Below, in pieces: positions 37,447 through 48,509 of a DNA stretch of 64,000 bases (position 1 is the first letter of the stretch; every line of letters starts with the position of its first letter). The stretch is from NCBI GenBank assembly GCA_965209055.1, contig OZ242374.1:3072001-3136000 (forward strand), given 5' to 3'. The position numbers and the translations under genes are program-made. The notes under the pieces were generated by a model that was not told the DNA's origin, did not search any database, and saw nothing but the letters and a program-made list of their open reading frames with translations. The stretch is from Acidobacteriota bacterium. GTDB taxonomy: Bacteria > Acidobacteriota > UBA6911 > RPQK01 > JAJDTT01.

Positions 37447-39618
37447 TCAGACCAGCCTGACCCTCGCATATCTCTGGTAGAACTTCTTGATGCCCCGCCC
37501 TGAGAACGAGACGGTCAGCTTGAGATCGTTTCCGGCTGGCTGAACCTGCAAGACGATTCCGCGCCCGTAGTCGCGATGCTCGACTCTGGCGCCCGGTGTA
37601 AGGCTCCGGCTCATGGAACTGCCGTCCGTCCCTTCCGGTCCGGGACTCGGGGCCCCGGATCGTCCCGGAGAGCGACCGGCGCCCCAAAGCTGGGCCTGTG
37701 ACCATTCGGGTCCGGAGTATCGCACCAGGCGGCGGGGAATTTCCGACAGGAAGCTGCTCGCCTGGCGGCGTTCCTCCAGGTCTCCCCCCCACATCCTCCG
37801 GGTGCGGGCGAGGGTGAGGATCAGGCGCTTCCGGGCCCGGGTCATGCCCACGTAGCACAGCCGCCGTTCTTCCTCCACATTCCCCTCCGCCAGCGATCGG
37901 GTGTGGGGCAGCAGCTTTTCTTCCAGTCCTACCAGGAAGACGATGGGAAACTCCAATCCCTTGGCGTTGTGGAGCGTCATCAGCGTGACCGGGGCCGCCT
38001 CGTCGTAATCGTCCGCTTCCGACCGGAGCGCGGTCTCGTCCAGGAACTCCTGGAGGCTCCGGCCGGAATCCACATGGTCGCGAGCGACGCTCAGGAGTTC
38101 CTGCAGGTTCATCAGCCGGTTGTTGGCCTCTTCCGAATCTTCTCGTTCCAGTTTCCGGACGTATCCGCTGGAATGCAGGATCTGTTCCAAGATGCTGTGC
38201 AGTGGCTGCTCCAGGTCGATCCACCGCTGCCATTGGCCCACGAGAGCGACGAAACGTTCCAGGACGTTTCGCAATCTGCGGGGCGCATCCTCCTGTTCGG
38301 CCTCCCGGCAAACGGCGTCCCAGAGCGAGTCGCCGCTTCGCGCCGCTCCCAGGCGGAGGCGGGCCAGGCTCTGTGCGCCGATGCCTCTCGGAGGAGTGTT
38401 GATGATCCGCTCCAGCGCCAGGTTGTCCCTGGGATTGCGGGCGACCCTCAGGTAGGCGAGGGCGTCCCGGACCTCCTTCCGCTTGTAGAAGCTCACACCT
38501 CCTACCAGACGGAATGGGAGGCCGAAGCGGTTCAAAGTATCCTCGAACTGCCGGGACAGAAAATTGATGCGATACAGGACGGCGATCCCCGTCTCTCCCT
38601 GTTGAAGGTAGCGTTCGATCCTCCGGCACACGAACAGCGATTCCGCGTGAGAGCTGTCCGCCGAATGGACCTCGACCGGCTCTCCGCGGGGATTCTCCGT
38701 CCAGAGCCGTTTCGGCTTTCTCTCCGAGTTGTGAGAGACCACCGCCGTGGCGGCGTCCAGGATGCTCTGGCGGGAACGGTAGTTCTGTTCCAGCTTGACC
38801 ACGACCGCTCCGGGAAAGTCCTCCTCGAAGCTGAGAATGTTGCCGATGTCGGCTCCCCGAAAGGCGTAGATGGACTGGTCCTCGTCACCCACGGCAGTCA
38901 CGTTCCGGTGGGTCGAGGCCAGATGGCGCACCAGGGCGTATTGGCTGGCGTTGGTGTCCTGGTATTCGTCGATGAGGAGATACCGGTACCGGTTCGACCA
39001 GGCCTCCCGGATTTCGGGCTGTTCCCGGAAGAGTCTGTCGGCAAGCAGAATCAGGTCGTCGAAGTCCATGGCGTTGGACTTCTCCAGATGCTCCTGATAG
39101 TGCGCCATCACCGGCTCCAGTCCCTCGCGGCCGTAGGGATCATCGTCGAAACGGAAATCGTAGACTCGCCTCCGGCTCCGGTTTTTCCTCTTGCTGATGA
39201 GGCTTCGGATCCTGCGCACCGGCGAACTGATGCCCGCGTCGGCGCAGATCTTCTTGAGAATGGCGTTCTGATCGTCCGTGTCGCAGATGGCGAAGTCCCG
39301 GCCGTAGCCCAGGTGTTCGGCGTGCCGGCGCAGAACCCGGACGCAGAAGGAATGAAAGGTTGAAAGCCTCGGGACCCGGTCCGGTCCCTGCAGCAGGCCT
39401 TCCACCCGAAGACGCATTTCCTCGGCCGCCTTGTTGGTGAAGGTGACCCCCAGGATCTCCCAGGGACGGCATATCCCCTGGTGGATCAGGTGGGCGATCT
39501 TGCAGGTGATGACCCGCGTCTTTCCGCTTCCGGCGCCGGCCACCACGAGCATGGGACCATCGGTCGTGGTGACGGCCAGCTTCTGCCGGTCGTTCAGACT
39601 TTGGAGATAGTCGTCCAT
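37447..39618 (-). CDS. uvrD: UvrD/PcrA SF1 DNA helicase
   Basis: AGAGSGKT, TFTNKAA, DEYQDTN, VGDEDQSIY.FRGA, LEQNYRS, TLHNAKGLEF and EERRLCYV.MTRA. Confidence 0.95.
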   Translation of the reverse strand: MDDYLQSLNDRQKLAVTTTDGPMLVVAGAGSGKTRVITCKIAHLIHQGICRPWEILGVTFTNKAAEEMRLRVEGLLQGPDRVPRLSTFHSFCVRVLRRHAEHLGYGRDFAICDTDDQNAILKKICADAGISSPVRRIRSLISKRKNRSRRRVYDFRFDDDPYGREGLEPVMAHYQEHLEKSNAMDFDDLILLADRLFREQPEIREAWSNRYRYLLIDEYQDTNASQYALVRHLASTHRNVTAVGDEDQSIYAFRGADIGNILSFEEDFPGAVVVKLEQNYRSRQSILDAATAVVSHNSERKPKRLWTENPRGEPVEVHSADSSHAESLFVCRRIERYLQQGETGIAVLYRINFLSRQFEDTLNRFGLPFRLVGGVSFYKRKEVRDALAYLRVARNPRDNLALERIINTPPRGIGAQSLARLRLGAARSGDSLWDAVCREAEQEDAPRRLRNVLERFVALVGQWQRWIDLEQPLHSILEQILHSSGYVRKLEREDSEEANNRLMNLQELLSVARDHVDSGRSLQEFLDETALRSEADDYDEAAPVTLMTLHNAKGLEFPIVFLVGLEEKLLPHTRSLAEGNVEEERRLCYVGMTRARKRLILTLARTRRMWGGDLEERRQASSFLSEIPRRLVRYSGPEWSQAQLWGAGRSPGRSGAPSPGPEGTDGSSMSRSLTPGARVEHRDYGRGIVLQVQPAGNDLKLTVSFSGRGIKKFYQRYARVRLV

Positions 39619-39677
39619 GGAACGCGGGTTCTCCGTCGCCGTGGCCGCGGGCAGGGCCGGCCCACGACGATCAGAAT

Positions 39678-39717
39678 GAAGAAAGGGCCGGGAAAGCGTC
39701 GTGCTGTCCCGGCCCTT
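39678..39717 (-). terminator. Probable intrinsic terminator after the TPR gene
   Basis: AAGGGCCGGGA...TCCCGGCCCTT stem, followed on the minus strand by TTTCTTC. Confidence 0.55.
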
Positions 39718-39749
39718 GTGATGAATCTGCTTTTGGCAGTCCGGAAGGC

Positions 39750-40748
39750 TCAGGTGACCCGCTCGACGAACTCTTCGATTCCGGCGAGGGAGTCGTTGTG
39801 GGTGGACTTGTAGAGCTGCTCCAGGTGCTTGCGGCAATGCTTGGCATGAGGCGCGCCCCGTTGAACGGAGCCGCGGGCGAAAGCCGTCATGGCGTCATCG
39901 ATCCGGTTCTGCTGCCATCGTCCCATGCCGATGTAGAAGTAGGCTTCTCCCCGGAGCCCCCGCGAGGAGGTGGCGCGCAGAGCGCGGCTGTAACTGGAGA
40001 TGGCGCCTCCCCAGTTTCTGGACTCGGCGGCGTTGCGGCCCACCGCGCCGTGGGCAATGGCCGTCTGCGCCTTGACGTACTTGTCCCATTCCGCCTGGGA
40101 GGTGCCCTGCGGTTTCTTGAGCTGGGAGAAGGCCCTGATGGTCTTCCGGCCATATTCGGAAGCCTTTTGCCACTGCTTCTTGGTCACGTAGATATTGGTC
40201 AGCTCGGCCACGATCTGGTAGGTCTCCGCGGGCTTGAGCCCACCGACCGCCTTCTCGCCGTATGAGATGTACTTGGCCTCGTTCTTGGGCCCGTAGGAAA
40301 GGGCCAGGATGTAAGCAAGTCCGGCGGACGGCATCTTGGCGTAGAACTTCTCGCCGTATTGGGCCGCCTTCGGGAGCTGCCGGCTCTGGAATGCGGCGTA
40401 GGTGACCATCTGCAGGGCGTTGGGTTCGTTCGGGTTCAGGGCCAGGAGCTTCTCACCGGCCGAGACCACCTTCCGGTGGTTACCCTGTTTCTGGTACGCC
40501 TGAAGCAACTTCACGTAGTTGCCCAAGCCATACTCGGTGAGCTTCGAATCGGGATTGGCCTTCATGAACCCGATGATGGCGTCCTCGCGCTTACCGAGGT
40601 TCGGTTCGTCGATGGCCGCCTTGTAGACCTGATACTCCTGGATGCTGTAGGGCGTCTGCTGTTGTCCCACCACGGGGCTCAAGACCAGGGCCGTCATGGC
40701 CAAAGCCAATCCGACTGCCAGACCCTTTCGGCGCGCTTTGAATGTCAT
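39750..40748 (-). CDS. Exported TPR protein
   Basis: Signal peptide, multiple helical TPR-like repeats, codon usage typical of highly expressed genes. Confidence 0.8.
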   Translation of the reverse strand: MTFKARRKGLAVGLALAMTALVLSPVVGQQQTPYSIQEYQVYKAAIDEPNLGKREDAIIGFMKANPDSKLTEYGLGNYVKLLQAYQKQGNHRKVVSAGEKLLALNPNEPNALQMVTYAAFQSRQLPKAAQYGEKFYAKMPSAGLAYILALSYGPKNEAKYISYGEKAVGGLKPAETYQIVAELTNIYVTKKQWQKASEYGRKTIRAFSQLKKPQGTSQAEWDKYVKAQTAIAHGAVGRNAAESRNWGGAISSYSRALRATSSRGLRGEAYFYIGMGRWQQNRIDDAMTAFARGSVQRGAPHAKHCRKHLEQLYKSTHNDSLAGIEEFVERVT

Positions 40749-40916
40749 CAATTGCTGTACCCTCCTCATGCAGTGTAATAAGGTTGAGGTTCGAAGCAAG
40801 TGGGAGCGACACTACCACAAGCCGCGTCCCGCGTGCAATATCCCTTCGAGCCGTCGAAGCGGCCTTCCAGGCAACCATCGCCGGCGGTTCGGTCACTCCC
40901 AAGGAAGAGTCGCGTC

Positions 40917-41906
40917 ATGAGTTTCCCGGAACCGCCTCCCGCCCTGGAAAACGTGGATCTGGCCCGTATCGACGGCTCGGACGAGACGCTGGCCATCACA
41001 CCCAATTGGTTTCCCATGCGCCGATTGGCTGCGTCCATCCGGAGCGTGGGCGTGGTCACGCCCTTGCACCTGCAGCCGGCGCCGGGCGGCGATCTGAGAA
41101 TCGCCATGGGGTTTAGCCGCTACCGCGCGGCGCGGGCTTCGGGCGTGCGCGCGGTGCCGGCGTTGGTCCGGACCCGGGCCTCCGACCGGAAACTCTTCGA
41201 CTGCGCGCTGGCCGAGAAAGCCGCCGGCCCGCTTCACGATCTGGAGCGGGCGCGGGCTCTGGTCAAGCTCAGGGAGCAGTTCGGGGTCGAAGAGGAATCC
41301 CTCATCGACCGGTACCTGCCGCTCCTGAACGCGCCGCCCAGCCGCTACCGCCTCCGTTTCCTCCTCCGCCTCGGACGCCTCGACGAAGTGTTGCAGCGCG
41401 CCGTTCACCGGGTCCTGGACCCGGAAACGGCCTTCCGGCTGGCGGCTTGGACGGTTGCGGAGCGGGAGCTGTTTCTGGGACTCCTGACGCGGTATGAACC
41501 GGGCCGAAACCGGCAGCGGGAACTGTTCGACCTGCTGGACGACCTCAGGTCTGCCGAGCGCCGGCGCGGGTCCGAAGGGCTGGACCGGGTCTGGAAGTCG
41601 TCGGGCGCCGGAGAGGCGGATGAGGACGCCGGGACGGTCCGTCCTCTTCGGTTTCGCCGGATCCTGGATTGCCTCCATCGGCTGCGCCGGCCCCGCCTGT
41701 CCCGGCATCAGGATCGCTACCGCCGGCTGAAGGGTGATCTCAAGATCCCCCCCCAGATCCGGTTGCAGGTTCCCCCCTACTTCGAGGGGGATCAGCTCTC
41801 GTTCTCTTTCTCCTGCCGCAATCAGGCCGAGTTTCGCCATCTGGTGGGCAGGCTCGAGGAGATGGGCAACCGTCGGGAGCTGGGACGGATCTTCGAACTC
41901 TTGTGA
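40917..41906 (+). CDS. ParB/Srx N-terminal domain protein
   Basis: LAASIRSVGVVTPL...IAMGFSRYRAA matches ParB box I/II; helical C-terminal part. Confidence 0.75.
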   Translation: MSFPEPPPALENVDLARIDGSDETLAITPNWFPMRRLAASIRSVGVVTPLHLQPAPGGDLRIAMGFSRYRAARASGVRAVPALVRTRASDRKLFDCALAEKAAGPLHDLERARALVKLREQFGVEEESLIDRYLPLLNAPPSRYRLRFLLRLGRLDEVLQRAVHRVLDPETAFRLAAWTVAERELFLGLLTRYEPGRNRQRELFDLLDDLRSAERRRGSEGLDRVWKSSGAGEADEDAGTVRPLRFRRILDCLHRLRRPRLSRHQDRYRRLKGDLKIPPQIRLQVPPYFEGDQLSFSFSCRNQAEFRHLVGRLEEMGNRRELGRIFELL

Positions 41907-41993
41907 CGGTCCATGACGGTCCGTGCGCGGGATTGATAAGCTTTTAGTCCGTCCCCCGTCCTGCGGTGGAAGGGGCGAGCGGAGGCCGACGCC

Positions 41994-43115
41994 ATGGTTT
42001 CGTACAGACCGGACAGGATTTACGTGGAACGCTGCGTGGCGGACTCGTGGGTCACCCGGAACGTGTTGCGGCGGCTTGCAGACACGCCGGTCGAATGGCT
42101 CGACGACTCCCGCGCGCTGTTGTCCGAGTCCCGCCGCTTGAGTCCTTCCCTGGCGGCGGCCAAGAGATCCCTGGTGTTGGCGCGGCACAAGGGGCGCTTT
42201 TTCAAGGATTGCCCGGCCAGCCGGTCACGGGGCGAGCGGAACGTCTGCTGCAACTACTTCGTCGTCAACTACGCCAGCAACTGCCACATGGAGTGCAGCT
42301 ACTGCTATCTCCAGACCCACCTGAATTTTCCCCACCTGGTCGTCTACGCCAACTATCGCGACCTCTTGCAGGAGCTCGAGACACGCTTCCGATCCCATCC
42401 CAAGACTCCCTTCCGGGTGGGGACCGGAGAGTTGGCCGACAGCCTGGCCCTGGATCCGCTGACCCGCTATTCGGTTCCCCTGGTGGAATTCTTTTCCCGC
42501 TTCGATAACGCGATCCTGGAATTCAAGACCAAGTCGGATTGCGTCGACAACCTGATAGGGCTGGAGCATGGTGGACGGACCGTGGTGTCGTGGTCCATCA
42601 ATCCCAGGCCCGTCCAGGAGAGGGAGGAACATCGCACGGCGAGCATCGATCGGCGGCTCAGGGCGGCGGAACGTTGCGTTGCCGGGGGGTACCGGGTCGG
42701 ATTCCATCTGGACCCCATGATCCACTACCCGGGCTGGGAGCGGGACTATGAGGACCTGGTCGACGAGATATTCCGCCGTTTTCCGCCCCGGTCCGTGGCC
42801 TGGATTTCCCTGGGCAGCCTCCGCCTGAGCGCCGGGTTGAAAGCATTCATGAGGTCCCGATTCCCCCGAAGCGGACTTCCGCTGGGAGAGCTGGTCCCGG
42901 TCCCGGACGGCAAGCTCCGCTACTTCTGGCCGATTCGGGTGCAGATGTACCGTTCGACCGTGGAGTGGGTCAGGGACCGCAGCCCCCGGACCCCCGTCTA
43001 TCTGTGCATGGAGCGTCCGGGAGTCTGGAGCAAGGTCTTTGCCCAGGCCCCGCCGGACGAGAAGCGCCTGGGCCGCCGTCTGGCCGGCAACCTGCCGGTT
43101 ACTGCGGCACGGTGA
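41994..43115 (+). CDS. Spore photoproduct lyase-family radical SAM protein
   Basis: NCHMECSYCYLQ (CxxxCxxC), GEL.DSL, EFKTKS, SWSINP, RL.AA and GFHLDP.I. Confidence 0.88.
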   Translation: MVSYRPDRIYVERCVADSWVTRNVLRRLADTPVEWLDDSRALLSESRRLSPSLAAAKRSLVLARHKGRFFKDCPASRSRGERNVCCNYFVVNYASNCHMECSYCYLQTHLNFPHLVVYANYRDLLQELETRFRSHPKTPFRVGTGELADSLALDPLTRYSVPLVEFFSRFDNAILEFKTKSDCVDNLIGLEHGGRTVVSWSINPRPVQEREEHRTASIDRRLRAAERCVAGGYRVGFHLDPMIHYPGWERDYEDLVDEIFRRFPPRSVAWISLGSLRLSAGLKAFMRSRFPRSGLPLGELVPVPDGKLRYFWPIRVQMYRSTVEWVRDRSPRTPVYLCMERPGVWSKVFAQAPPDEKRLGRRLAGNLPVTAAR

Positions 43116-43599
43116 ACCGGAAGCCGTTGATGTCCATCTCGGCGCGGGTGGACATCCAGTCCCGGGGCAGATCCTGGATGTAGAGGGTGAAGCTCCGTTT
43201 CCTCATGGGCTGGATCGGGGCCGTGTAGGCGCCCGGCCGAATTGGAACCCGGGTCGTTTCCCAGACCGGCGTGTCGTAGTTGAAGAAGATCATCTTCATC
43301 TCGACCACGTCCAGCGCCCGCTCCCCCTGATTCTCGATGGTGGCGGAAAAAACGGCCATTCGGTTGCCGGCAATGTTCTTGGCCATCTGGAGGCGGGGCC
43401 GGGTCAGGCTCACGTGTTCCCGATACCAGCCGTAGTCCGAATCCCCTTCCCGGAGCACTCCGGTCAAATCCTCCCGCTGCTGGGGCTTGGGATCATGCAT
43501 GAAGATGACCACACTCGTCAGAAGGATGGCTGCCAACCCGACGGGAATCAGGATTTTCCAATGCTCTTTGGTGCGGGCGGCGGCGTTGGTCTGAAACAT
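43099..43599 (-). CDS. Membrane-anchored Ig-like periplasmic protein
   Basis: Single TM followed by beta-rich 'IENQG.R.L..VE' and 'PIQP...RSF' pattern. Confidence 0.65.
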   Translation of the reverse strand: MFQTNAAARTKEHWKILIPVGLAAILLTSVVIFMHDPKPQQREDLTGVLREGDSDYGWYREHVSLTRPRLQMAKNIAGNRMAVFSATIENQGERALDVVEMKMIFFNYDTPVWETTRVPIRPGAYTAPIQPMRKRSFTLYIQDLPRDWMSTRAEMDINGFRFTVPQ

Positions 43600-43612
43600 G
43601 GTCGGTCTACTC

Positions 43613-44449
43613 CTACTCCTGGATCAGGACAAAATGAACTCTCCGGTTCAAGGCCCAGGACTCTTCCGACTGGCCCGTGTCGAAAGGCCGTTCCTCTCCC
43701 AGGGCGATGGTCGACATGCGGCCGGGATCGATGCCCGCGTCCACCAGAAATTGGCGCACCACCTGGGACCTCTTGTCGGCCAGAGCCAGATTGTATTCGT
43801 CGGTGCCGCGCTCGTCACAATGCCCTTCCAGGACGAACCGGACGTGAACGTTTTCAGGCTGGGAAAACCAGCGGGCGTTGGCCTCCAGGATGGACCTGTT
43901 CTCTGCATCGAGCGCGCTGCTGTCGAAGCCGAAGAAAACGGGCGCGACACTGAGCGGGATTTCATCGTCGCGAGCCGCCGGGAACAGGTCTTCCTGGTCG
44001 ATCGCTCCGCTCCGGTCCGTCGAAACCTCGATCGTCACCAGGCGCTCCACCGTGCCCCCCGGTCCTGTGGCGCTCAGCCGGTAGGAGGTCGTTTCTTCGG
44101 GAAAGAGCTTGATTCTTCCGGACGGATCCACGACTCCGATGCCCTGGTCGATCCGCACTTCGCCGGCGCCCTCGGTCTCCCATGACAGCAGGGCCGAGCC
44201 CCCTGGCCGGATCACGGACGGCTCGACGCGAATCTCCAAGCTGGGCGCCGGGGCAACGGCCGGCTCGGCCGCGTCGGTCCCGGTTGTGGAAGTGCCGGCG
44301 CCGGCGCCCCGGTCGGCGGCGCTGGGAGGAAGGGGGGGCACCCGGTTTCTGCCGCAAGAGGCCCCCGCCAGGACCAGAAGCCCCAAGACCAGGAACGGCA
44401 GAAGACGGGATGGAATCTTGAAGAGGTCCCTTTCAGCGGGTGGAAGCAT
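43613..44449 (-). CDS. OmpA/Pal-family peptidoglycan-associated lipoprotein
   Basis: Lipobox LAGASC; VFFGFDSS, EGHCDERGTDEYNLALA.KR and NRRVHF. Confidence 0.9.
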   Translation of the reverse strand: MLPPAERDLFKIPSRLLPFLVLGLLVLAGASCGRNRVPPLPPSAADRGAGAGTSTTGTDAAEPAVAPAPSLEIRVEPSVIRPGGSALLSWETEGAGEVRIDQGIGVVDPSGRIKLFPEETTSYRLSATGPGGTVERLVTIEVSTDRSGAIDQEDLFPAARDDEIPLSVAPVFFGFDSSALDAENRSILEANARWFSQPENVHVRFVLEGHCDERGTDEYNLALADKRSQVVRQFLVDAGIDPGRMSTIALGEERPFDTGQSEESWALNRRVHFVLIQE

Positions 44450-45704
44450 ACTCAGGTCCGGCGATGATGGTGGTGAAGTTTACCGTATCCAAATGACGAC
44501 GGGCAACCCGCCTCACCTCCTCGGCGTCGACGGCGCGGATCCAATCCGGATACAGGCGGATGAAGTCCGGGTCCAGGCCGAAGCGTTCCGCGGTCAGCAG
44601 AAACCGGGCCACGTGGGCGTTGGACTGGAAACCGAATACGAAGCTGCCGGTCAGATAGTTCCGGGCCAATTCCATCTCCTCTTCCGTAGGTCCATCCTTG
44701 ATGAGACTCTCGATTTCCTTCATGAGTCCGCTCACGGCGGCGTCACGATTCGACGGCGAGGTGCAGATGTAGGCGAGGAACCGTCCCGGATAGCGGCCGG
44801 CCGACCCGGTGAGGTCGCTGTAGGTGGCATAGGCGAGGCCCCGGCGGTCCCTGAGCTCCCGGGGAATCCGGCTGGTGAACCCCGGCCCGCTGCCCAGGAC
44901 GGCGTCCATCACCTGGAGCGCATAGAAGTCGGGGTGGTCCCGGGTCACGCCCAGGTGGCCCAGGCAGACGTGGACCTGTTCCCGGCCCTCCAGGACCCGC
45001 TGCCGCACCCGGGGTGCACGCTGGCGGCGGGGCGCCGGAGGCCGGTTCTTTCGGAAGCGGCCGTTTCGCCACGATCCCAGGCGGCGGTCCACCAGATCCG
45101 CAACCTGTGCGTGACCGGCGTTCCCCACAACCACCAAAACCGTGTTCCCCGGAGCGTATCGCAAGCGGTGAAACTCCCGAATGTCCTCGATCTGCAGCCG
45201 CCTCAACGACGCCGGGGTGCCCAGGCCGGGGAACTGCAGCGGACCGCCGCGGTAGATCTCCCGGTTCAACAGGTTGCTCACCACCACCTGCGGGTCGTCC
45301 TCCAGCGCCTCCAACCGGGTCAGTGCCTTCTCCCGCTCCAGGCCGAATCGTTGCCGGGGGAAGGTGGGGCGGGAAAGCATCTGGGCCGCCAGATCGAGTC
45401 CTTCCGGCAGATCGCGGTCCCTGAGATGGAGCGAGATCCCGGTCAGTTCATGTTGGCAGTAGGTGGAGAGGTTGCCGCCCGCGTCCTCCACCAGGCGGGA
45501 AATGTCGTCGGCCCGGTATTTGGCCGTTCCTTCCTCCAACATCCGTGAAGCAAGGGCCGCCAGTCCCGGCTGCCGGAGCGGGTTCTGGTCGGTGCCGGCG
45601 AGAACGAAGGCGTTGACCGAAACTACGGGTAGACGGTCGTTTCGACAGGTGAGGAGGACCAGTCCGTTTTTCCAGACCCGTCGTTGGAATCCGTCCAGAA
45701 CCAT
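44433..45704 (-). CDS. M16 peptidase, non-catalytic subunit
   Basis: PGLA.L...ML.EGT without HxxEH; SR...ELR...GLAY motif. Confidence 0.88.
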   Translation of the reverse strand: MVLDGFQRRVWKNGLVLLTCRNDRLPVVSVNAFVLAGTDQNPLRQPGLAALASRMLEEGTAKYRADDISRLVEDAGGNLSTYCQHELTGISLHLRDRDLPEGLDLAAQMLSRPTFPRQRFGLEREKALTRLEALEDDPQVVVSNLLNREIYRGGPLQFPGLGTPASLRRLQIEDIREFHRLRYAPGNTVLVVVGNAGHAQVADLVDRRLGSWRNGRFRKNRPPAPRRQRAPRVRQRVLEGREQVHVCLGHLGVTRDHPDFYALQVMDAVLGSGPGFTSRIPRELRDRRGLAYATYSDLTGSAGRYPGRFLAYICTSPSNRDAAVSGLMKEIESLIKDGPTEEEMELARNYLTGSFVFGFQSNAHVARFLLTAERFGLDPDFIRLYPDWIRAVDAEEVRRVARRHLDTVNFTTIIAGPEYASTR

Positions 45705-45731
45705 TTTCGATACTCTCGGCTGCGGGTTGGG

Positions 45732-46994
45732 CTATCCGGTCTCCACGACGCCGACCGTCCAGCGCCGTCCGGACCAGTGCCCGGCCGCGGCCGCCATGAC
45801 CTCCTCGGCGGTCAGCCGGGAGATTCGCTCCACGTAGTCGTTCCAGTATCCCGGGCGCTGCAGCGCTTCCATGGAGGCCAGTTGCATGCATTGGTCGAAT
45901 GTCGTTTCCAGTTCGAAAAGAGACTGGTTGATGCACTGGTTCTTGGCCCGGATCAACTCGTCCCGGGTCAGCGGTTCGGTGCACAGTTGCATGAGTTCGT
46001 GGACGAGGAGTTCCTCGGTCTGCTGCAGGTCGGCATTCTCGCGCAACTCCAGGCGGATCAGCAGGAGGTAGGGGTCGAAGGTGTCGCCCATTTCGGTGTG
46101 GACCAGGGACGCCAGTTGGGTCTCTTCGACGAATTTCCTGTAGAGGCGTGAAAGCCGGCCCTCGGAGAGCACCCGGTCCAGGATCTGAAAGGCGTCGTGG
46201 TCACTCTGATGAATGGAGGGTGCGGGCAGGGCCATCAGCATTCTGGGCACGCGGCTCCGGCGCCGGACTTTGATCCTGACCCGGCCGCTGTCCGCCGCCT
46301 CCCGGGGCGGACGCGGCGGCGGCGGAAGACCGGTGGATGTCTGACGGAAGAGCCGCTCCACCGTCCGGAGAGTGAAGTCCGGGTCCGTGTCGCCGGCGAC
46401 GGCCAGCACGGCGTTCCCGGGGACGTAGTATCGGCGGTAGTGTTCCACCATCTGTTGCACGGTCAGCGCCTCGATGTCCCGGCTCATTCCGATGATGGGG
46501 AAGCGGTACGGGTGCCGCTCGAAGGCCGTCAACTCGACCGACCGGCGAAGTGCGCCCCAGGGATGGTCCTGTTCCATTCTGGATTCTTCGAGGATCACCT
46601 GCCGCTCCAGTTCGAACTCCTGGGGGTCGAAACGATTGTTCGACATCCGGTCGGCCTCGATTTCCAGAGCGCAAACCCATCGGTCGGAGGCAAAGCTGAA
46701 AAAGTAGCCGGTATAGTCCTGCGTGGTGAAGGCGTTGTTGGAGCCCCCATGGAGTGCCGTGATCCGGTCGATCTCTCCGGGGCCGTAGCGTCCGGTGCCC
46801 TTGAACATCATGTGTTCCAGGAAATGGGAAATGCCGGTCCGGCCTGCAACCTCCACTCTGGATCCCACCCGGTAGCAGACCATGGTGGTGACGACAGGAC
46901 TGGTGGGGTCCGGGCGCACCAGCAGGGTCAGACCGTTGTCGAGACGGTAGCGATGGACCGGAGGAACCCGGAAGCCGGGGGTTTGTCCCTTCAA
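45732..46994 (-). CDS. M16 zinc peptidase, catalytic subunit
   Basis: TGISHFLEHMMFKGT, NAFT and ER.VILEE; start uncertain. Confidence 0.92.
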   Translation of the reverse strand: MKGQTPGFRVPPVHRYRLDNGLTLLVRPDPTSPVVTTMVCYRVGSRVEVAGRTGISHFLEHMMFKGTGRYGPGEIDRITALHGGSNNAFTTQDYTGYFFSFASDRWVCALEIEADRMSNNRFDPQEFELERQVILEESRMEQDHPWGALRRSVELTAFERHPYRFPIIGMSRDIEALTVQQMVEHYRRYYVPGNAVLAVAGDTDPDFTLRTVERLFRQTSTGLPPPPRPPREAADSGRVRIKVRRRSRVPRMLMALPAPSIHQSDHDAFQILDRVLSEGRLSRLYRKFVEETQLASLVHTEMGDTFDPYLLLIRLELRENADLQQTEELLVHELMQLCTEPLTRDELIRAKNQCINQSLFELETTFDQCMQLASMEALQRPGYWNDYVERISRLTAEEVMAAAAGHWSGRRWTVGVVETG

Positions 46995-47093
46995 GACCGG
47001 TTCCTTTCGGGGATGTCCCTTCTCCCGGCAACCGGAGATCGCGCGATCTCTTTTGCCCCGCGCTCGCGGGACACTGATACAATGTTTCGATCC

Positions 47094-48509
47094 ATGAGGA
47101 ATCCAGTCCAGCACTCCGGCTCCCGTCCCGGCAGGGCGATCCGGGCGCTTCCGATCCTGGCCGCTGTCATCGCCATGATTATAGCGTCAGCTCCCGGCGC
47201 GCCGACGGTGAAGCTGGCGAAGTTGAGCGTTCCTTCGTTCGAGCGGAAGTCCCTGCTGAACGGGATGGAGGTGCTGATGCTCCCGCCCGGCCCGTCGCGC
47301 CGGTCCTTCCGTCTCATGATCGAGAACGGGGCCGCATTCGATCCGGTGGATAAGTGGGGCATCACCCATCTCACCACCCGGATGTTGCTGGAGGAGACCG
47401 AGATCCGCTCCGGTGACCTGATTCGGCGGCAGCTCGAAAGCCTCGATGCCGAGTTGGAATTCCAGGTCGATTGGGATGCCATTTACCTCTACGGAAACGC
47501 TCCGGAAGGGAATCTCCCCGCGGTCCTGGGACTGCTGGGGGAGATCGTGGTGCGTCCCTTTTTTCGGGAGGAGACCTTCGAGCGGCTCAGGGCGCAGCAA
47601 CTGGAAGAGGTCGAAAACCAGATGAAACGACCGGAAGTGGTCACCCAGAAAGCGTTTCTGGCCAATCTCTTCGGACCGAATCCGTACGGACACGGCGTTC
47701 TGGGAACCGTGGAGACGCTCAACAACCTGGAGTTGAGAGACGTCAAGATCCAATACCGGAAGCTCTTTCTTCCCAACCAGGCCAGACTCGCGCTGCACAC
47801 GTCAGCCGAGCCGCAGGACTTGTTCCGGGAACTGAGTCGCCGCTGGGGCGTCTGGATCCGCGCCGAAGCGGCCCCGTTCACGTTTCGCCGGGCTCCGGCC
47901 GGGCAGGGATGGCGCATTCTGCTGCAAGACCTGCCCGGGGACGAGGCCCTCTTTCGCTGGGGCAGGCTCGGCGTGGAGATGGGCAGCAGGGACTACTACG
48001 CCCTCAAGATGTTGGAGGAGTATCTGACCCTCTCCTTGCCCGGCTTGGCCCGGGTGGTGGAGGCCGAGCAGCAGATCCAGGCCTCCTCCCGGGTGAAGGC
48101 CTTTCGAATGCCGGGATATCTCCAACTGAGCCTCAGAACCTCCTCGGATCGCCTGATGCCTTATCTGAAGGAGTTTCTTCAGACCATGAGCGGACTTCGG
48201 AAGGGCGAGGTGGACTCGTCTCTGATGGAGGAAGCCAGAAGCCTGGCCTATCTTGAATTCCGCAATCGATTGGAAGATCCGGTGGGCCGCCTGACCCGCA
48301 TACTGGACACCAGCCTCTACGATCTGGGTGTCACCTACATCGTGAACTATGGACTCCGCCTGCGGCGGGTGACACCCGAGGACTTTCGCACGCTCCTGAT
48401 GGAGTACCTCTCACAAGACTCTTCGCTGCTCGTCGTCGGTGGTCCCGCCGCTGATCTCAAGCCTGAACTCGAGGAATTGGGGCCGGTTCAAATCTCCACC
48501 GTCCATTGA
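47094..48509 (+). CDS. Exported M16-fold protein lacking HxxEH
   Basis: Signal peptide, L.NGM, G...DP..K.GITHLT.RML and PYG....GT.E.L. Confidence 0.8.
   Translation: MRNPVQHSGSRPGRAIRALPILAAVIAMIIASAPGAPTVKLAKLSVPSFERKSLLNGMEVLMLPPGPSRRSFRLMIENGAAFDPVDKWGITHLTTRMLLEETEIRSGDLIRRQLESLDAELEFQVDWDAIYLYGNAPEGNLPAVLGLLGEIVVRPFFREETFERLRAQQLEEVENQMKRPEVVTQKAFLANLFGPNPYGHGVLGTVETLNNLELRDVKIQYRKLFLPNQARLALHTSAEPQDLFRELSRRWGVWIRAEAAPFTFRRAPAGQGWRILLQDLPGDEALFRWGRLGVEMGSRDYYALKMLEEYLTLSLPGLARVVEAEQQIQASSRVKAFRMPGYLQLSLRTSSDRLMPYLKEFLQTMSGLRKGEVDSSLMEEARSLAYLEFRNRLEDPVGRLTRILDTSLYDLGVTYIVNYGLRLRRVTPEDFRTLLMEYLSQDSSLLVVGGPAADLKPELEELGPVQISTVH

Follow-up and report, generated by a model that had tools for sequence, protein, structure and literature searches.

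A ParB-like protein and a radical SAM enzyme of the spore photoproduct lyase family as a conserved gene pair of non-sporulating bacteria

The window analyzed here is a 64,000-nucleotide (nt) stretch of an Acidobacteriota genome (contig OZ242374.1, positions 3,072,001 to 3,136,000 of the forward strand). It carries two adjacent genes, one for a ParB-like protein (ParBl) and one for a radical S-adenosylmethionine (SAM) enzyme of the spore photoproduct lyase (SPL) family, referred to below as the enzyme. We found that the two genes are supported as a conserved functional pair by their synteny across phyla, their co-occurrence in genomes where they are unlinked, one fusion protein, and a predicted interface between their products. 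As a mechanism, we propose an SPL-like lyase, directed at DNA and served by an adaptor of the ParB fold, that would reverse a lesion related to the spore photoproduct, a proposal to which we give about an even chance of being right. The open reading frames (ORFs) and their Pfam matches agree with the initial annotation of the window, which had placed a ParB N-domain gene directly upstream of an SPL-like gene:

40917..41906, plus strand: ParBl gene, encoding a ParB_N protein of 329 amino acids (aa) from an ATG; the frame is open from 40800
41907..41993, plus strand: spacer of 87 nt between the two genes, with no terminator-like site
41994..43115, plus strand: gene of the enzyme, an SPL-family radical SAM protein of 373 aa

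Conservation and co-occurrence of the two genes

We surveyed 70 genome loci carrying the enzyme. A hidden Markov model (HMM) of the ParBl family matched the ORF directly upstream of the enzyme at 62 of them, and an upstream same-strand ORF with a Pfam ParB_N match was present at 57 of the 66 loci with a candidate ORF (52 over the cut-off). Outside the Acidobacteriota, the upstream ORFs scored 208.9 bits in Desulfacinum, 162 in Desulfomonilales, 102 in Desulfomicrobium, and 78 in another bacterium; a Nitrospirales match scored 52.8 bits, on a cut contig. Within the Acidobacteriota, the surroundings are syntenic too, with UvrD at 47, a tetratricopeptide repeat (TPR) gene at 50, and the gene of a 166-aa protein at 49 of the 70 loci; taken alone, this acidobacterial synteny could be inertia. 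In other phyla, unrelated genes such as those for SAICAR synthase, GT2, and S41 peptidase flank the pair, which persists there. Its locus is single-copy and lies in a syntenic housekeeping region, not in an island.

In Bdellovibrionota, the upstream partners are open frames of 156 to 287 aa (L059:4348-4977, L060:4108-4968, and L062:4534-5001). These short partners keep the C-terminal RYP module of ParBl, described below, and have no detectable ParB N domain. At L059, a UvrA-like paralogue lies directly downstream on the opposite strand (L059:6123-8813, minus strand).

We then considered whole genomes. The enzyme was present in 65 of 301 Acidobacteriota genomes at an E value of ≤1e-50, and full-length ParBl was found in at least about 39 genomes among the matches listed; the other ParBl matches listed extend over no more than the N-terminal two-thirds of the model, as canonical ParB would. 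ParBl immediately preceded the enzyme on the same strand in at least 35 genomes, including the unpublished G049, and the two genes were on different contigs in six; one genome had ParBl without the enzyme at E ≤ 1e-50. This partner check covered the genomes other than 17 whose weaker enzyme match (E value of 1e-52 to 1e-73) probably belongs to another SPL subfamily and five from families f46 and f49. In seven genomes of family f46 (G085, G097, G121, G156, G197, G267, and G297), the enzyme match runs from about model position 60 on, the N-terminal alpha/beta part being missing or replaced; in G085, G121, and G156, the gene resembling ParBl either lies on a separate contig or amounts to no more than a C-terminal fragment, once with a stop codon.

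An independent sample comprised 201 genomes from the phylum of the Desulfacinum genome (G301), with the enzyme called at E ≤ 1e-40 and the partner called through a 97-column alignment of the RYP module, which canonical ParBs do not match. The enzyme was present in 118 genomes and the module in 116; 114 genomes had both, 4 had the enzyme alone, 2 had the module alone, and 81 had neither, these being counts over related genomes that are not independent of one another. The module ended ≤400 bp upstream of the enzyme on the same strand in 71 of the 114 genomes with both (median gap, 33 bp). The genes overlapped in 1 genome, were adjacent in reversed order in 4, and were separated by a 692-bp gap in 1; in 6 they were far apart on one contig (19 to 830 kb), and in 31 they were on different contigs. 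Because the co-occurrence outlasts the loss of linkage, these results point to functional partnership rather than inertia. Synteny and co-occurrence, the check that the initial annotation had proposed, thus bear out the pair, which occurs at the 62 loci in several phyla and of which both genes are present in 114 genomes versus 6 with a single gene.

Predicted physical link and architecture of the two proteins

A single metagenomic sequence, P0293, encodes a 705-aa fusion of the two proteins. Its residues 1 to 317 match the ParBl profile (hhalign probability, 99.9), and the rest matches the enzyme (40% identity over 95% of the query). Four of five long proteins, carrying OmpA/TolB, PNP_UDP, TrmE, and GT2 domains, look like merged neighboring genes and were rejected as functional fusions, and no additional Pfam domain was found in the extended open frames surrounding the enzyme in G121, G094, and G045.

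Modeling of the complex, which had also been proposed as a check, gave an interface score (ipSAE) of 0.77, 0.78, and 0.77 for ParBl plus the enzyme, compared with 0.00 for the best control. Of 157 solved complexes, 116 attain the mark applied to this score, as do 2 of 215 mismatched pairs, a rough calibration given that our own alignments were used. The runs shared ≥95% of their contacts, with a predicted local distance difference test (pLDDT) value of ≥87 for the partner. The predicted interface falls on conserved motifs: on ParBl it comprises residues 209 to 216, 257 to 264, and 287 to 292, which are the RYP and PPxFEG motifs, and on the enzyme residues 287 to 304, 311 to 314, and 341 to 343, which are both strands of a beta-hairpin and a neighboring loop. 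The hairpin tip (residues 305 to 310) is not among the residues named in the interface. No solved SPL-ParB complex was among the Protein Data Bank (PDB) chains matched in our sequence and structure searches, so the result is unlikely to reflect memorization by the predictor. The model supports binding of ParBl to the enzyme.

The regions of ParBl that bear on this complex are the following:

41019..41216, plus strand: ParB N-terminal domain of the nucleoside triphosphate (NTP)-binding type, residues 35 to 100 (Pfam; VIA-align, PadC Z of 11.8 and sulfiredoxin Z of 10.0)
Within ParBl, box I: S40/G45/P49; box II: G65-F-S-R68
About 41208-41228, residues about 98 to 104: box III, degenerate (EK..G)
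41193..41555, plus strand: helical middle region, residues about 93 to 213, resembling the ParB/KorB DNA-binding, helix-turn-helix (HTH) domain
41610..41903, plus strand: C-terminal RYP module, residues about 232 to 329, the predicted enzyme-binding surface

ParBl scored 35.1 bits against Pfam ParB_N (PF02195; cut-off, 26.3) over residues 35 to 100 and 37.4 against TIGR00180, below the cut-off of 58.45; no curated NCBIfam model passed. A phmmer search of 1.84 billion representatives returned 637 proteins at E ≤ 1e-10. The best 150 matches were nearly all 300 to 360 aa long, and most aligned over nearly their whole length; judged from these matches, ParBl is a member of a distinct full-length family of about 320 to 340 aa. 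In its AlphaFold 2 model (pLDDT, 96.5), residues 1 to about 210 match CTP-bound ParB, Noc, and KorB chains (Foldseek, E value of 4e-8 to 1e-5 over about 200 columns). In VIA-align, the pNOB8 ParB (Z of 10.6), KorB (Z of 9.8), and Spo0J (Z of 8.8) were matched alongside PadC and sulfiredoxin. The middle region resembles the DNA-binding domains of KorB (Z of 5.8) and ParB (Z of 5.4) in structure only; Pfam HTH_ParB is absent from ParBl of the window and weak in 2 of 66 orthologous ORFs.

Residues 165 to 258 gave generic helical matches only (Z ≤ 6.1), residues 258 to 329 are barely covered and gave no convincing structural match in VIA-align, and Pfam ParB_C was not detected. The RYP module has no Pfam family, and a search of the ESM Atlas with it matched only clusters named "hypothetical protein." The strongest C-terminal motifs of the family lie here, R257-(Y/F)-P259-x-L and P-P-x-F-E290-G; ParBl of the window has RRP at the first. 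The C-terminal region dimerizes in canonical ParB. The initial annotation had envisaged a two-component system in which a ParB-type clamp takes part; synteny, co-occurrence, the fusion, and the interface argue for the two components as a functional pair, and a classical closed ParB clamp finds no support, since the prediction has the C-terminal region holding the enzyme rather than dimerizing.

We aligned 86 members of the ParBl family to assess the nucleotide pocket. G65 and R68 are invariant (86/86), and the third position of box II is R in 54 members, K in 16, Q in 13, and S in 1, the last being the window copy. The GFSR reading of box II in the initial annotation was therefore correct for this gene and does not describe the family, since it occurs in 1 of 86 members and all 8 orthologues from its own genus read GFRR. 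At box III, the family consensus is E (53) or D (28), then N (69), three variable positions, and R (72), and the whole genus of this strain is degenerate there (EK..G). Compared with the patterns GxRR for box II and ENxxR for box III, the window copy deviates in both (GFSR and EK..G), and the family consensus agrees.

The enzyme scored 104.9 bits against Pfam SPL (PF20903; cut-off, 27) and fell below the cut-offs of the SplB equivalog models (TIGR04070, 129.8 versus 400; TIGR03886, 64 versus 437.55). Its AlphaFold 2 model (pLDDT, 91.7) has the fold of Geobacillus SPL, which comprises an alpha/beta domain at the N terminus, a partial TIM barrel, and a beta-hairpin at the C terminus (Foldseek, 4fhf; E value of 1.8e-24, template-modeling [TM] scores TMq of 0.77 and TMt of 0.85, 355 columns); the next-best folds (MgmA, BioB, and others) had TM scores of <0.5. 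We mapped its residues onto SPL through HMMER alignments, in which the chain number equals the native number plus 27, and counted conservation in a 65-member family alignment. The features concerned are as follows:

42210..42215, plus strand: C73-P74, at the position of Geobacillus SPL Ser76; Cys in 64 of 65
42246..42251, plus strand: C85-C86, in an insertion of about 11 residues without counterpart in Geobacillus SPL; C85 in 65 of 65, C86 in 64 of 65
42282..42308, plus strand: radical SAM cluster motif, C97-H-M-E-C101-S-Y103-C104-Y105
42429..42431, plus strand: E146, at the position of SPL Cys140; Glu in 64 of 65
42888..42938, plus strand: beta-hairpin, residues 299 to 315, with the tip D305-G-K307-L-R309-Y310

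The three cluster cysteines (C97, C101, and C104) are invariant (65/65), and the CxxxCxxC motif with extra cysteines in CP and CC contexts was present as initially annotated. The SAM and cluster residues of SPL, whose roles are given in the available sections of PMC3467042, are kept in 64 to 65 of 65 members (D143 as D149, K174 as K180, S195 as S201, R273 as R277, and Y96 as Y103, the last in 65/65). The hairpin has strands at residues 300 to 302 and 307 to 310 (DSSP on the AlphaFold 2 model), and K307, R309, and Y310 at its tip are kept in 63 to 65 of 65 (R309 in 65, Y310 in 63); it would be the equivalent of the Arg304/Tyr305 hairpin that PMC3467042 describes, in its available sections, for SPL.

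The enzyme keeps a candidate hydrogen donor as well. The stretch GTGELADS aligns with the Cys140 stretch of Geobacillus SPL (AACTSD in the wild type, AASTSD and AAATSD in mutant chains), placing E146 at Cys140. The initial annotation was right to read no cysteine there, in place of what is presumably EASC in Bacillus SplB; its conclusion that the donor is lacking did not hold, since Cys73 occupies the Ser76 site in 64 of 65 members. In profile alignment, C73 pairs with Ser76 of wild-type SPL chains and with the engineered position of the C140A/S76C chain 4rh0. Clostridium SPLs have Ala at position 140 and a conserved Cys at the Ser76 position, 4.2 Å from the 3'-thymidine (PMC3467042, in part). 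Since C73 sits at this Clostridium-type donor site, the donor cysteine of the enzyme is relocated, not missing.

Proposed mechanism and rival explanations

In the mechanism that we propose, the products of the two genes would be two subunits of one machine. The enzyme would use its [4Fe-4S] cluster and SAM to generate a 5'-deoxyadenosyl radical, its Arg-Tyr-tipped hairpin would flip a damaged pyrimidine or dinucleotide out of DNA, and Cys73 would end the reaction by donating a hydrogen atom. ParBl would combine an NTP-binding N domain of the ParB/Srx type, a ParB/KorB-like DNA-binding middle region, and the novel RYP module, which is predicted to clamp onto the flank of the hairpin; it would thereby bring the enzyme to DNA or hold it there, with nucleotide gating possible, perhaps in most lineages. 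The reaction would be repair rather than modification and would directly reverse a lesion of the pyrimidine C5/C6 type, one that is akin to the spore photoproduct without being identical with it. DNA as the substrate is consistent with uvrD being syntenic at the 47 loci, with the UvrA-like gene beside the Bdellovibrio copy, and with the ParB/KorB-like middle region. The lesion is probably not the UV-induced spore photoproduct, judging from an altered pocket for the 5' base, the additional cysteines, and hosts that come from sponges or from anoxic sediments.

A number of observations weigh against this proposal. The hosts are sponge symbionts and sediment anaerobes, in which UV photoproducts are unlikely, and we found no damage-response signal, the sole definable LexA-type operator being confined to the promoter of lexA. 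In this organism NTP gating may have been lost, because box III is degenerate in the genus and box II reads GFSR in the strain. The position of SPL Tyr98 is Y105 in the enzyme and varies in the family (Y in 55, F in 5, I in 4, and A in 1 of 65). SPL Arg193 and Glu268, which contact O4 of the 5'-dihydrothymine (PMC3467042, in part), are replaced by S199 (Ser in 43 and Ala in 19 of 65) and by about S272 (64/65, in a gapped and uncertain part of the alignment), and SPL Ala234 is replaced by an invariant D240. Five extra cysteines (C73, C85, C86, C228, and C338) are conserved in 63 to 65 of 65 members, compared with only four conserved cysteines in all in the SPLs of Geobacillus, Bacillus, and Clostridium (PMC3467042, in part). 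They may form an auxiliary cluster and hence give the enzyme a different chemistry. Because of these pocket residues, the insertion, and the extra cysteines, the base pocket, and perhaps the chemistry, differs from that of SPL. The fusion, seen once, may be an artefact of assembly or gene calling. Eight of the 70 loci have no significant partner match (L016, L056, L057, L058, L059, L069, L036, and L054); of these, L036 and L054 are cut by the contig end, and one has a short RYP-like ORF only. In acidobacterial family f46, the enzyme lacks its first roughly 60 residues and the genes are unlinked. By its score and its lesion-binding residues, the enzyme is outside the SplB equivalog, which agrees with its initial description as a non-canonical SPL-family member of non-sporulators.

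The extra cysteines and the pocket residues unlike those of SPL would also fit DNA modification. Here an auxiliary Fe-S cluster formed by some of C73, C85, C86, C228, and C338 in the base pocket would write a mark on a pyrimidine, for example by inserting sulfur or through some other radical addition, with ParBl choosing the sites. Two of the five cysteines lie in the insertion near the 3'-base loop, the hosts meet little UV, and ParB-superfamily proteins accompany DNA modification enzymes (DndB; PMC10853773, in part). However, PADLOC returned no family for any of the four proteins scanned (ParBl, the enzyme, and two neighbors; E ≤ 0.01), the conserved neighborhood of the pair holds no nuclease or restriction partner, the locus is single-copy in a housekeeping region and not in an island, and the Clostridium-type donor cysteine and the SPL-like hairpin suit lyase chemistry. 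We therefore regard modification as unlikely. A substrate other than DNA, either RNA or tRNA or a small molecule, with the ParB/Srx-fold domain acting as an NTP-using enzyme or RNA binder, is quite improbable in our judgment. The fold does include non-DNA enzymes (sulfiredoxin, Z of 10.0; serine kinase, Z of 8.8; SbnI, Z of 7.9), and the homologues at L056 and L057 (40 to 43% identity) precede ThiI-like genes, one with an NFACT-R RNA-binding domain; but this link is confined to those two loci, both partner-less, ParBl keeps the ParB/KorB-like middle region and ParB-type boxes I to III rather than kinase- or Srx-type sites, and the Arg-Tyr-tipped hairpin of SPL is retained in the enzyme.

The remaining explanation, that ParBl is a mere operon repressor like KorB or DndB and that the enzyme alone is an ordinary SPL for desiccated or frozen cells, appears to us very improbable. 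KorB, of the ParB family, is a repressor (by the titles of 8qa8 and 8qa9), all the catalytic essentials of SPL are present in the enzyme, and UV-C induces an SPL-family gene in a bacterium that does not form spores (PMC12029717, in part). Yet the two genes co-occur when unlinked (6 genomes with the genes far apart and up to 31 with the genes on different contigs), for which a local repressor has no reason. The fusion P0293 exists, the confident predicted interface lies on motifs without a DNA-binding role, the Bdellovibrio partners retain the RYP module only, and the lesion-pocket residues are unlike those of SPL. A bolder form of the adaptor proposal, which we put forward tentatively and consider doubtful, casts ParBl as a ParB-family nucleotide switch that serves as the DNA-loading or -scanning subunit of the radical SAM enzyme. 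The pair would then be a widespread UV-independent system of anaerobes that reverses a reductive or radical pyrimidine lesion, such as a dihydropyrimidine-linked cross-link arising in the absence of oxygen, or that uses an auxiliary Fe-S cluster, made from the five extra cysteines, for a new chemistry on DNA bases.

At L057, from a Thermodesulfobacteriota metagenome-assembled genome (MAG), the ThiI-like gene with NFACT-R directly follows the enzyme homologue (L057:6059-7063), and at L056 a gene with a LON substrate-binding domain lies between the enzyme homologue and the ThiI-like gene (L056:6163-8522). There are hints that this sub-branch may act on tRNA or RNA.

Our search of the open full-text literature, with subscription journals and supplements outside its scope, found no description of a ParB-like partner of an SPL-type enzyme. 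SPL is the textbook radical SAM DNA repair enzyme, and the earlier view linked it to endospores. Homologues of SPL in deep-sea bacteria and in anaerobes have been a curiosity without explanation, vent bacteria carrying SPL-like genes without light (PMC2628731, in part). Our results indicate that one large clade of these homologues is common (118 of 201 genomes in the Desulfacinum phylum and 65 of 301 Acidobacteriota genomes) and that it has a dedicated ParB-fold partner with a specific predicted docking site on the enzyme. The question of what SPL homologues do in the absence of spores or UV thereby becomes one that two proteins allow to be tested directly, and the pair would widen the reach of ParB/CTP-switch proteins past segregation, nucleoid occlusion, and transcription. 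If ParBl were a nucleotide-switch loader, it would be the first ParB-fold protein delivering an enzyme, and the enzyme would be the first of the SPL fold with a non-photoproduct substrate.

Genome context and comparison with known systems

The genome is 6.08 Mb in one contig. Near-identical loci are titled Acidobacteriota MAGs, and 80 to 100% of the sampled words from positions 40700-43300 of the window were matched by runs labeled sponge metagenome or by coded organisms; the host is probably a sponge-associated acidobacterium. The neighbors scanned were UvrD, TPR, the 166-aa protein, and OmpA (Pfam). The genes next to the pair are these:

37447..about 39618, minus strand: uvrD (listed ORF, 37447-39837), one gene away from the pair, with the TPR gene between
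39750-40799, minus strand: TPR gene, separating uvrD from ParBl
43099-43599, minus strand: 166-aa protein, unmatched in Pfam, NCBIfam, and PADLOC

Several contextual statements of the initial annotation were confirmed: uvrD is one gene away, across the TPR gene on the minus strand; the host appears to be a non-sporulating diderm, in line with the adjacent OmpA-family gene and the Acidobacteriota MAG titles; and ParBl is an orphan, with no ParA-type gene among its scanned neighbors. The canonical parA-parB pair is located at C1:~1.42 Mb, and its ParB has HTH_ParB and ParB_C; because this ordinary pair sits elsewhere in the genome, ParBl is an extra orphan paralogue. Both uvrD and the TPR gene are transcribed divergently from ParBl. 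As listed, the uvrD ORF (796 aa from a TTG start) runs 88 nt into the TPR gene; since the UvrD helicase domain begins at residue 81, the real start is probably an internal Met near 39618. The gene of the 166-aa protein is convergent with the enzyme gene, their 3' ends overlapping by 17 nt. By tblastn, this protein occurs at 49 of the 70 loci, all acidobacterial and mostly adjoining the OmpA gene, and at none of the loci from other phyla. Three M16-family peptidase-like genes, so named from their translations alone, lie in a row at 44433-48509 (two minus-strand genes and one plus-strand gene) and adjoin an OmpA/Pal-like gene; within the Acidobacteriota they are syntenic with the pair at 27 to 32 of the 70 loci.

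A promoter and terminator scan of 40600-43700 found no promoter-like site and three terminator-like sites, which is the chance level, all inside ParBl. Contigs from a sponge metatranscriptome of a relative, about 90% identical, cover parts of both genes, a hint only, as DNA carry-over is possible; one RNA-library contig (relative about 90% identical) spans 41607-42011 and so bridges both genes, which is likewise a weak hint.

A second SPL-family gene of this genome lies outside the window (L004 = G000:C1:5058619-5062167). It encodes 348 aa (SPL, 64.7 bits), belongs to a different subfamily, and is directly downstream of lexA. It is followed by a gene for a TcmP "three-Cys-motif partner" (TIGR04474, 100.8 bits), and a DDE transposase lies beside the cluster. 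The lexA gene (201 aa) adjoins a transposase and may be local. Its promoter carries the perfect 20-nt palindrome TACCACTCATATGAGTGGTA, which occurs once in the 6.08-Mb genome at ≤4 mismatches and not at all in the window at 5. With TACCACTCATATGAGTGGTA confined to the lexA promoter, this result speaks neither for nor against control of the pair by SOS.

SOS-linked SplB-like radical SAM "photolyases" are described in non-sporulators (Aravind et al. 2013, PMC3765255, in part), and an SplB-like enzyme is UV-C-induced in Curtobacterium (PMC12029717, in part). The enzyme resembles the SOS-linked ones in belonging to the SPL family outside sporeformers, and in this genome one such copy follows lexA directly. 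It differs from them in its partner: the partners named in the available sections of PMC3765255 are ImuB-C, DUF4130, and uracil-DNA glycosylase, with no ParB-like one among them.

ParBl resembles the CTP clamps ParB/Spo0J, Noc, and KorB in its N domain, its DNA-binding-like middle region, and the family consensus of boxes I to III, and KorB likewise works with a protein partner (by the title of 8qa9). Unlike ParB, Noc, and KorB, ParBl has no adjacent ParA, scores below the TIGR00180 cut-off, has the RYP module where ParB_C, which was not detected, would lie, and has a degenerate box III in this genus. DpdB of the 7-deazaguanine system is a ParB-superfamily partner of a DNA-modifying enzyme. 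Similarly, DndB of Dnd phosphorothioation is a ParB-fold protein beside a DNA-acting enzyme that carries an Fe-S cluster or is said to use one (PMC10853773, in part). Unlike the Dnd and Dpd systems, the present pair has a catalytic partner of the SPL fold, no restriction or defense genes nearby, and a core-genome context.

The closest counterpart of the enzyme is SplB of Geobacillus and Bacillus (PDB 4FHC-4FHG), with which it shares the whole-chain fold, the CxxxCxxC motif with both flanking Tyr residues, the SAM ligands D149, K180, S201, and R277, and the Arg-Tyr hairpin; its Cys at the Ser76-position donor site is shared with the Clostridium-type SPL. Unlike SplB, it has E146 for Cys140, Ser/Ala and Ser for R193 and E268, D240 for Ala234, an 11-residue insertion with the CC pair, five extra cysteines, and a TIGR04070 score of 129.8 versus 400. 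It occurs in non-sporulating Acidobacteriota, Desulfobacterota, Nitrospirales, and Bdellovibrionota, and, unlike SPL, it has an obligate-looking partner protein.

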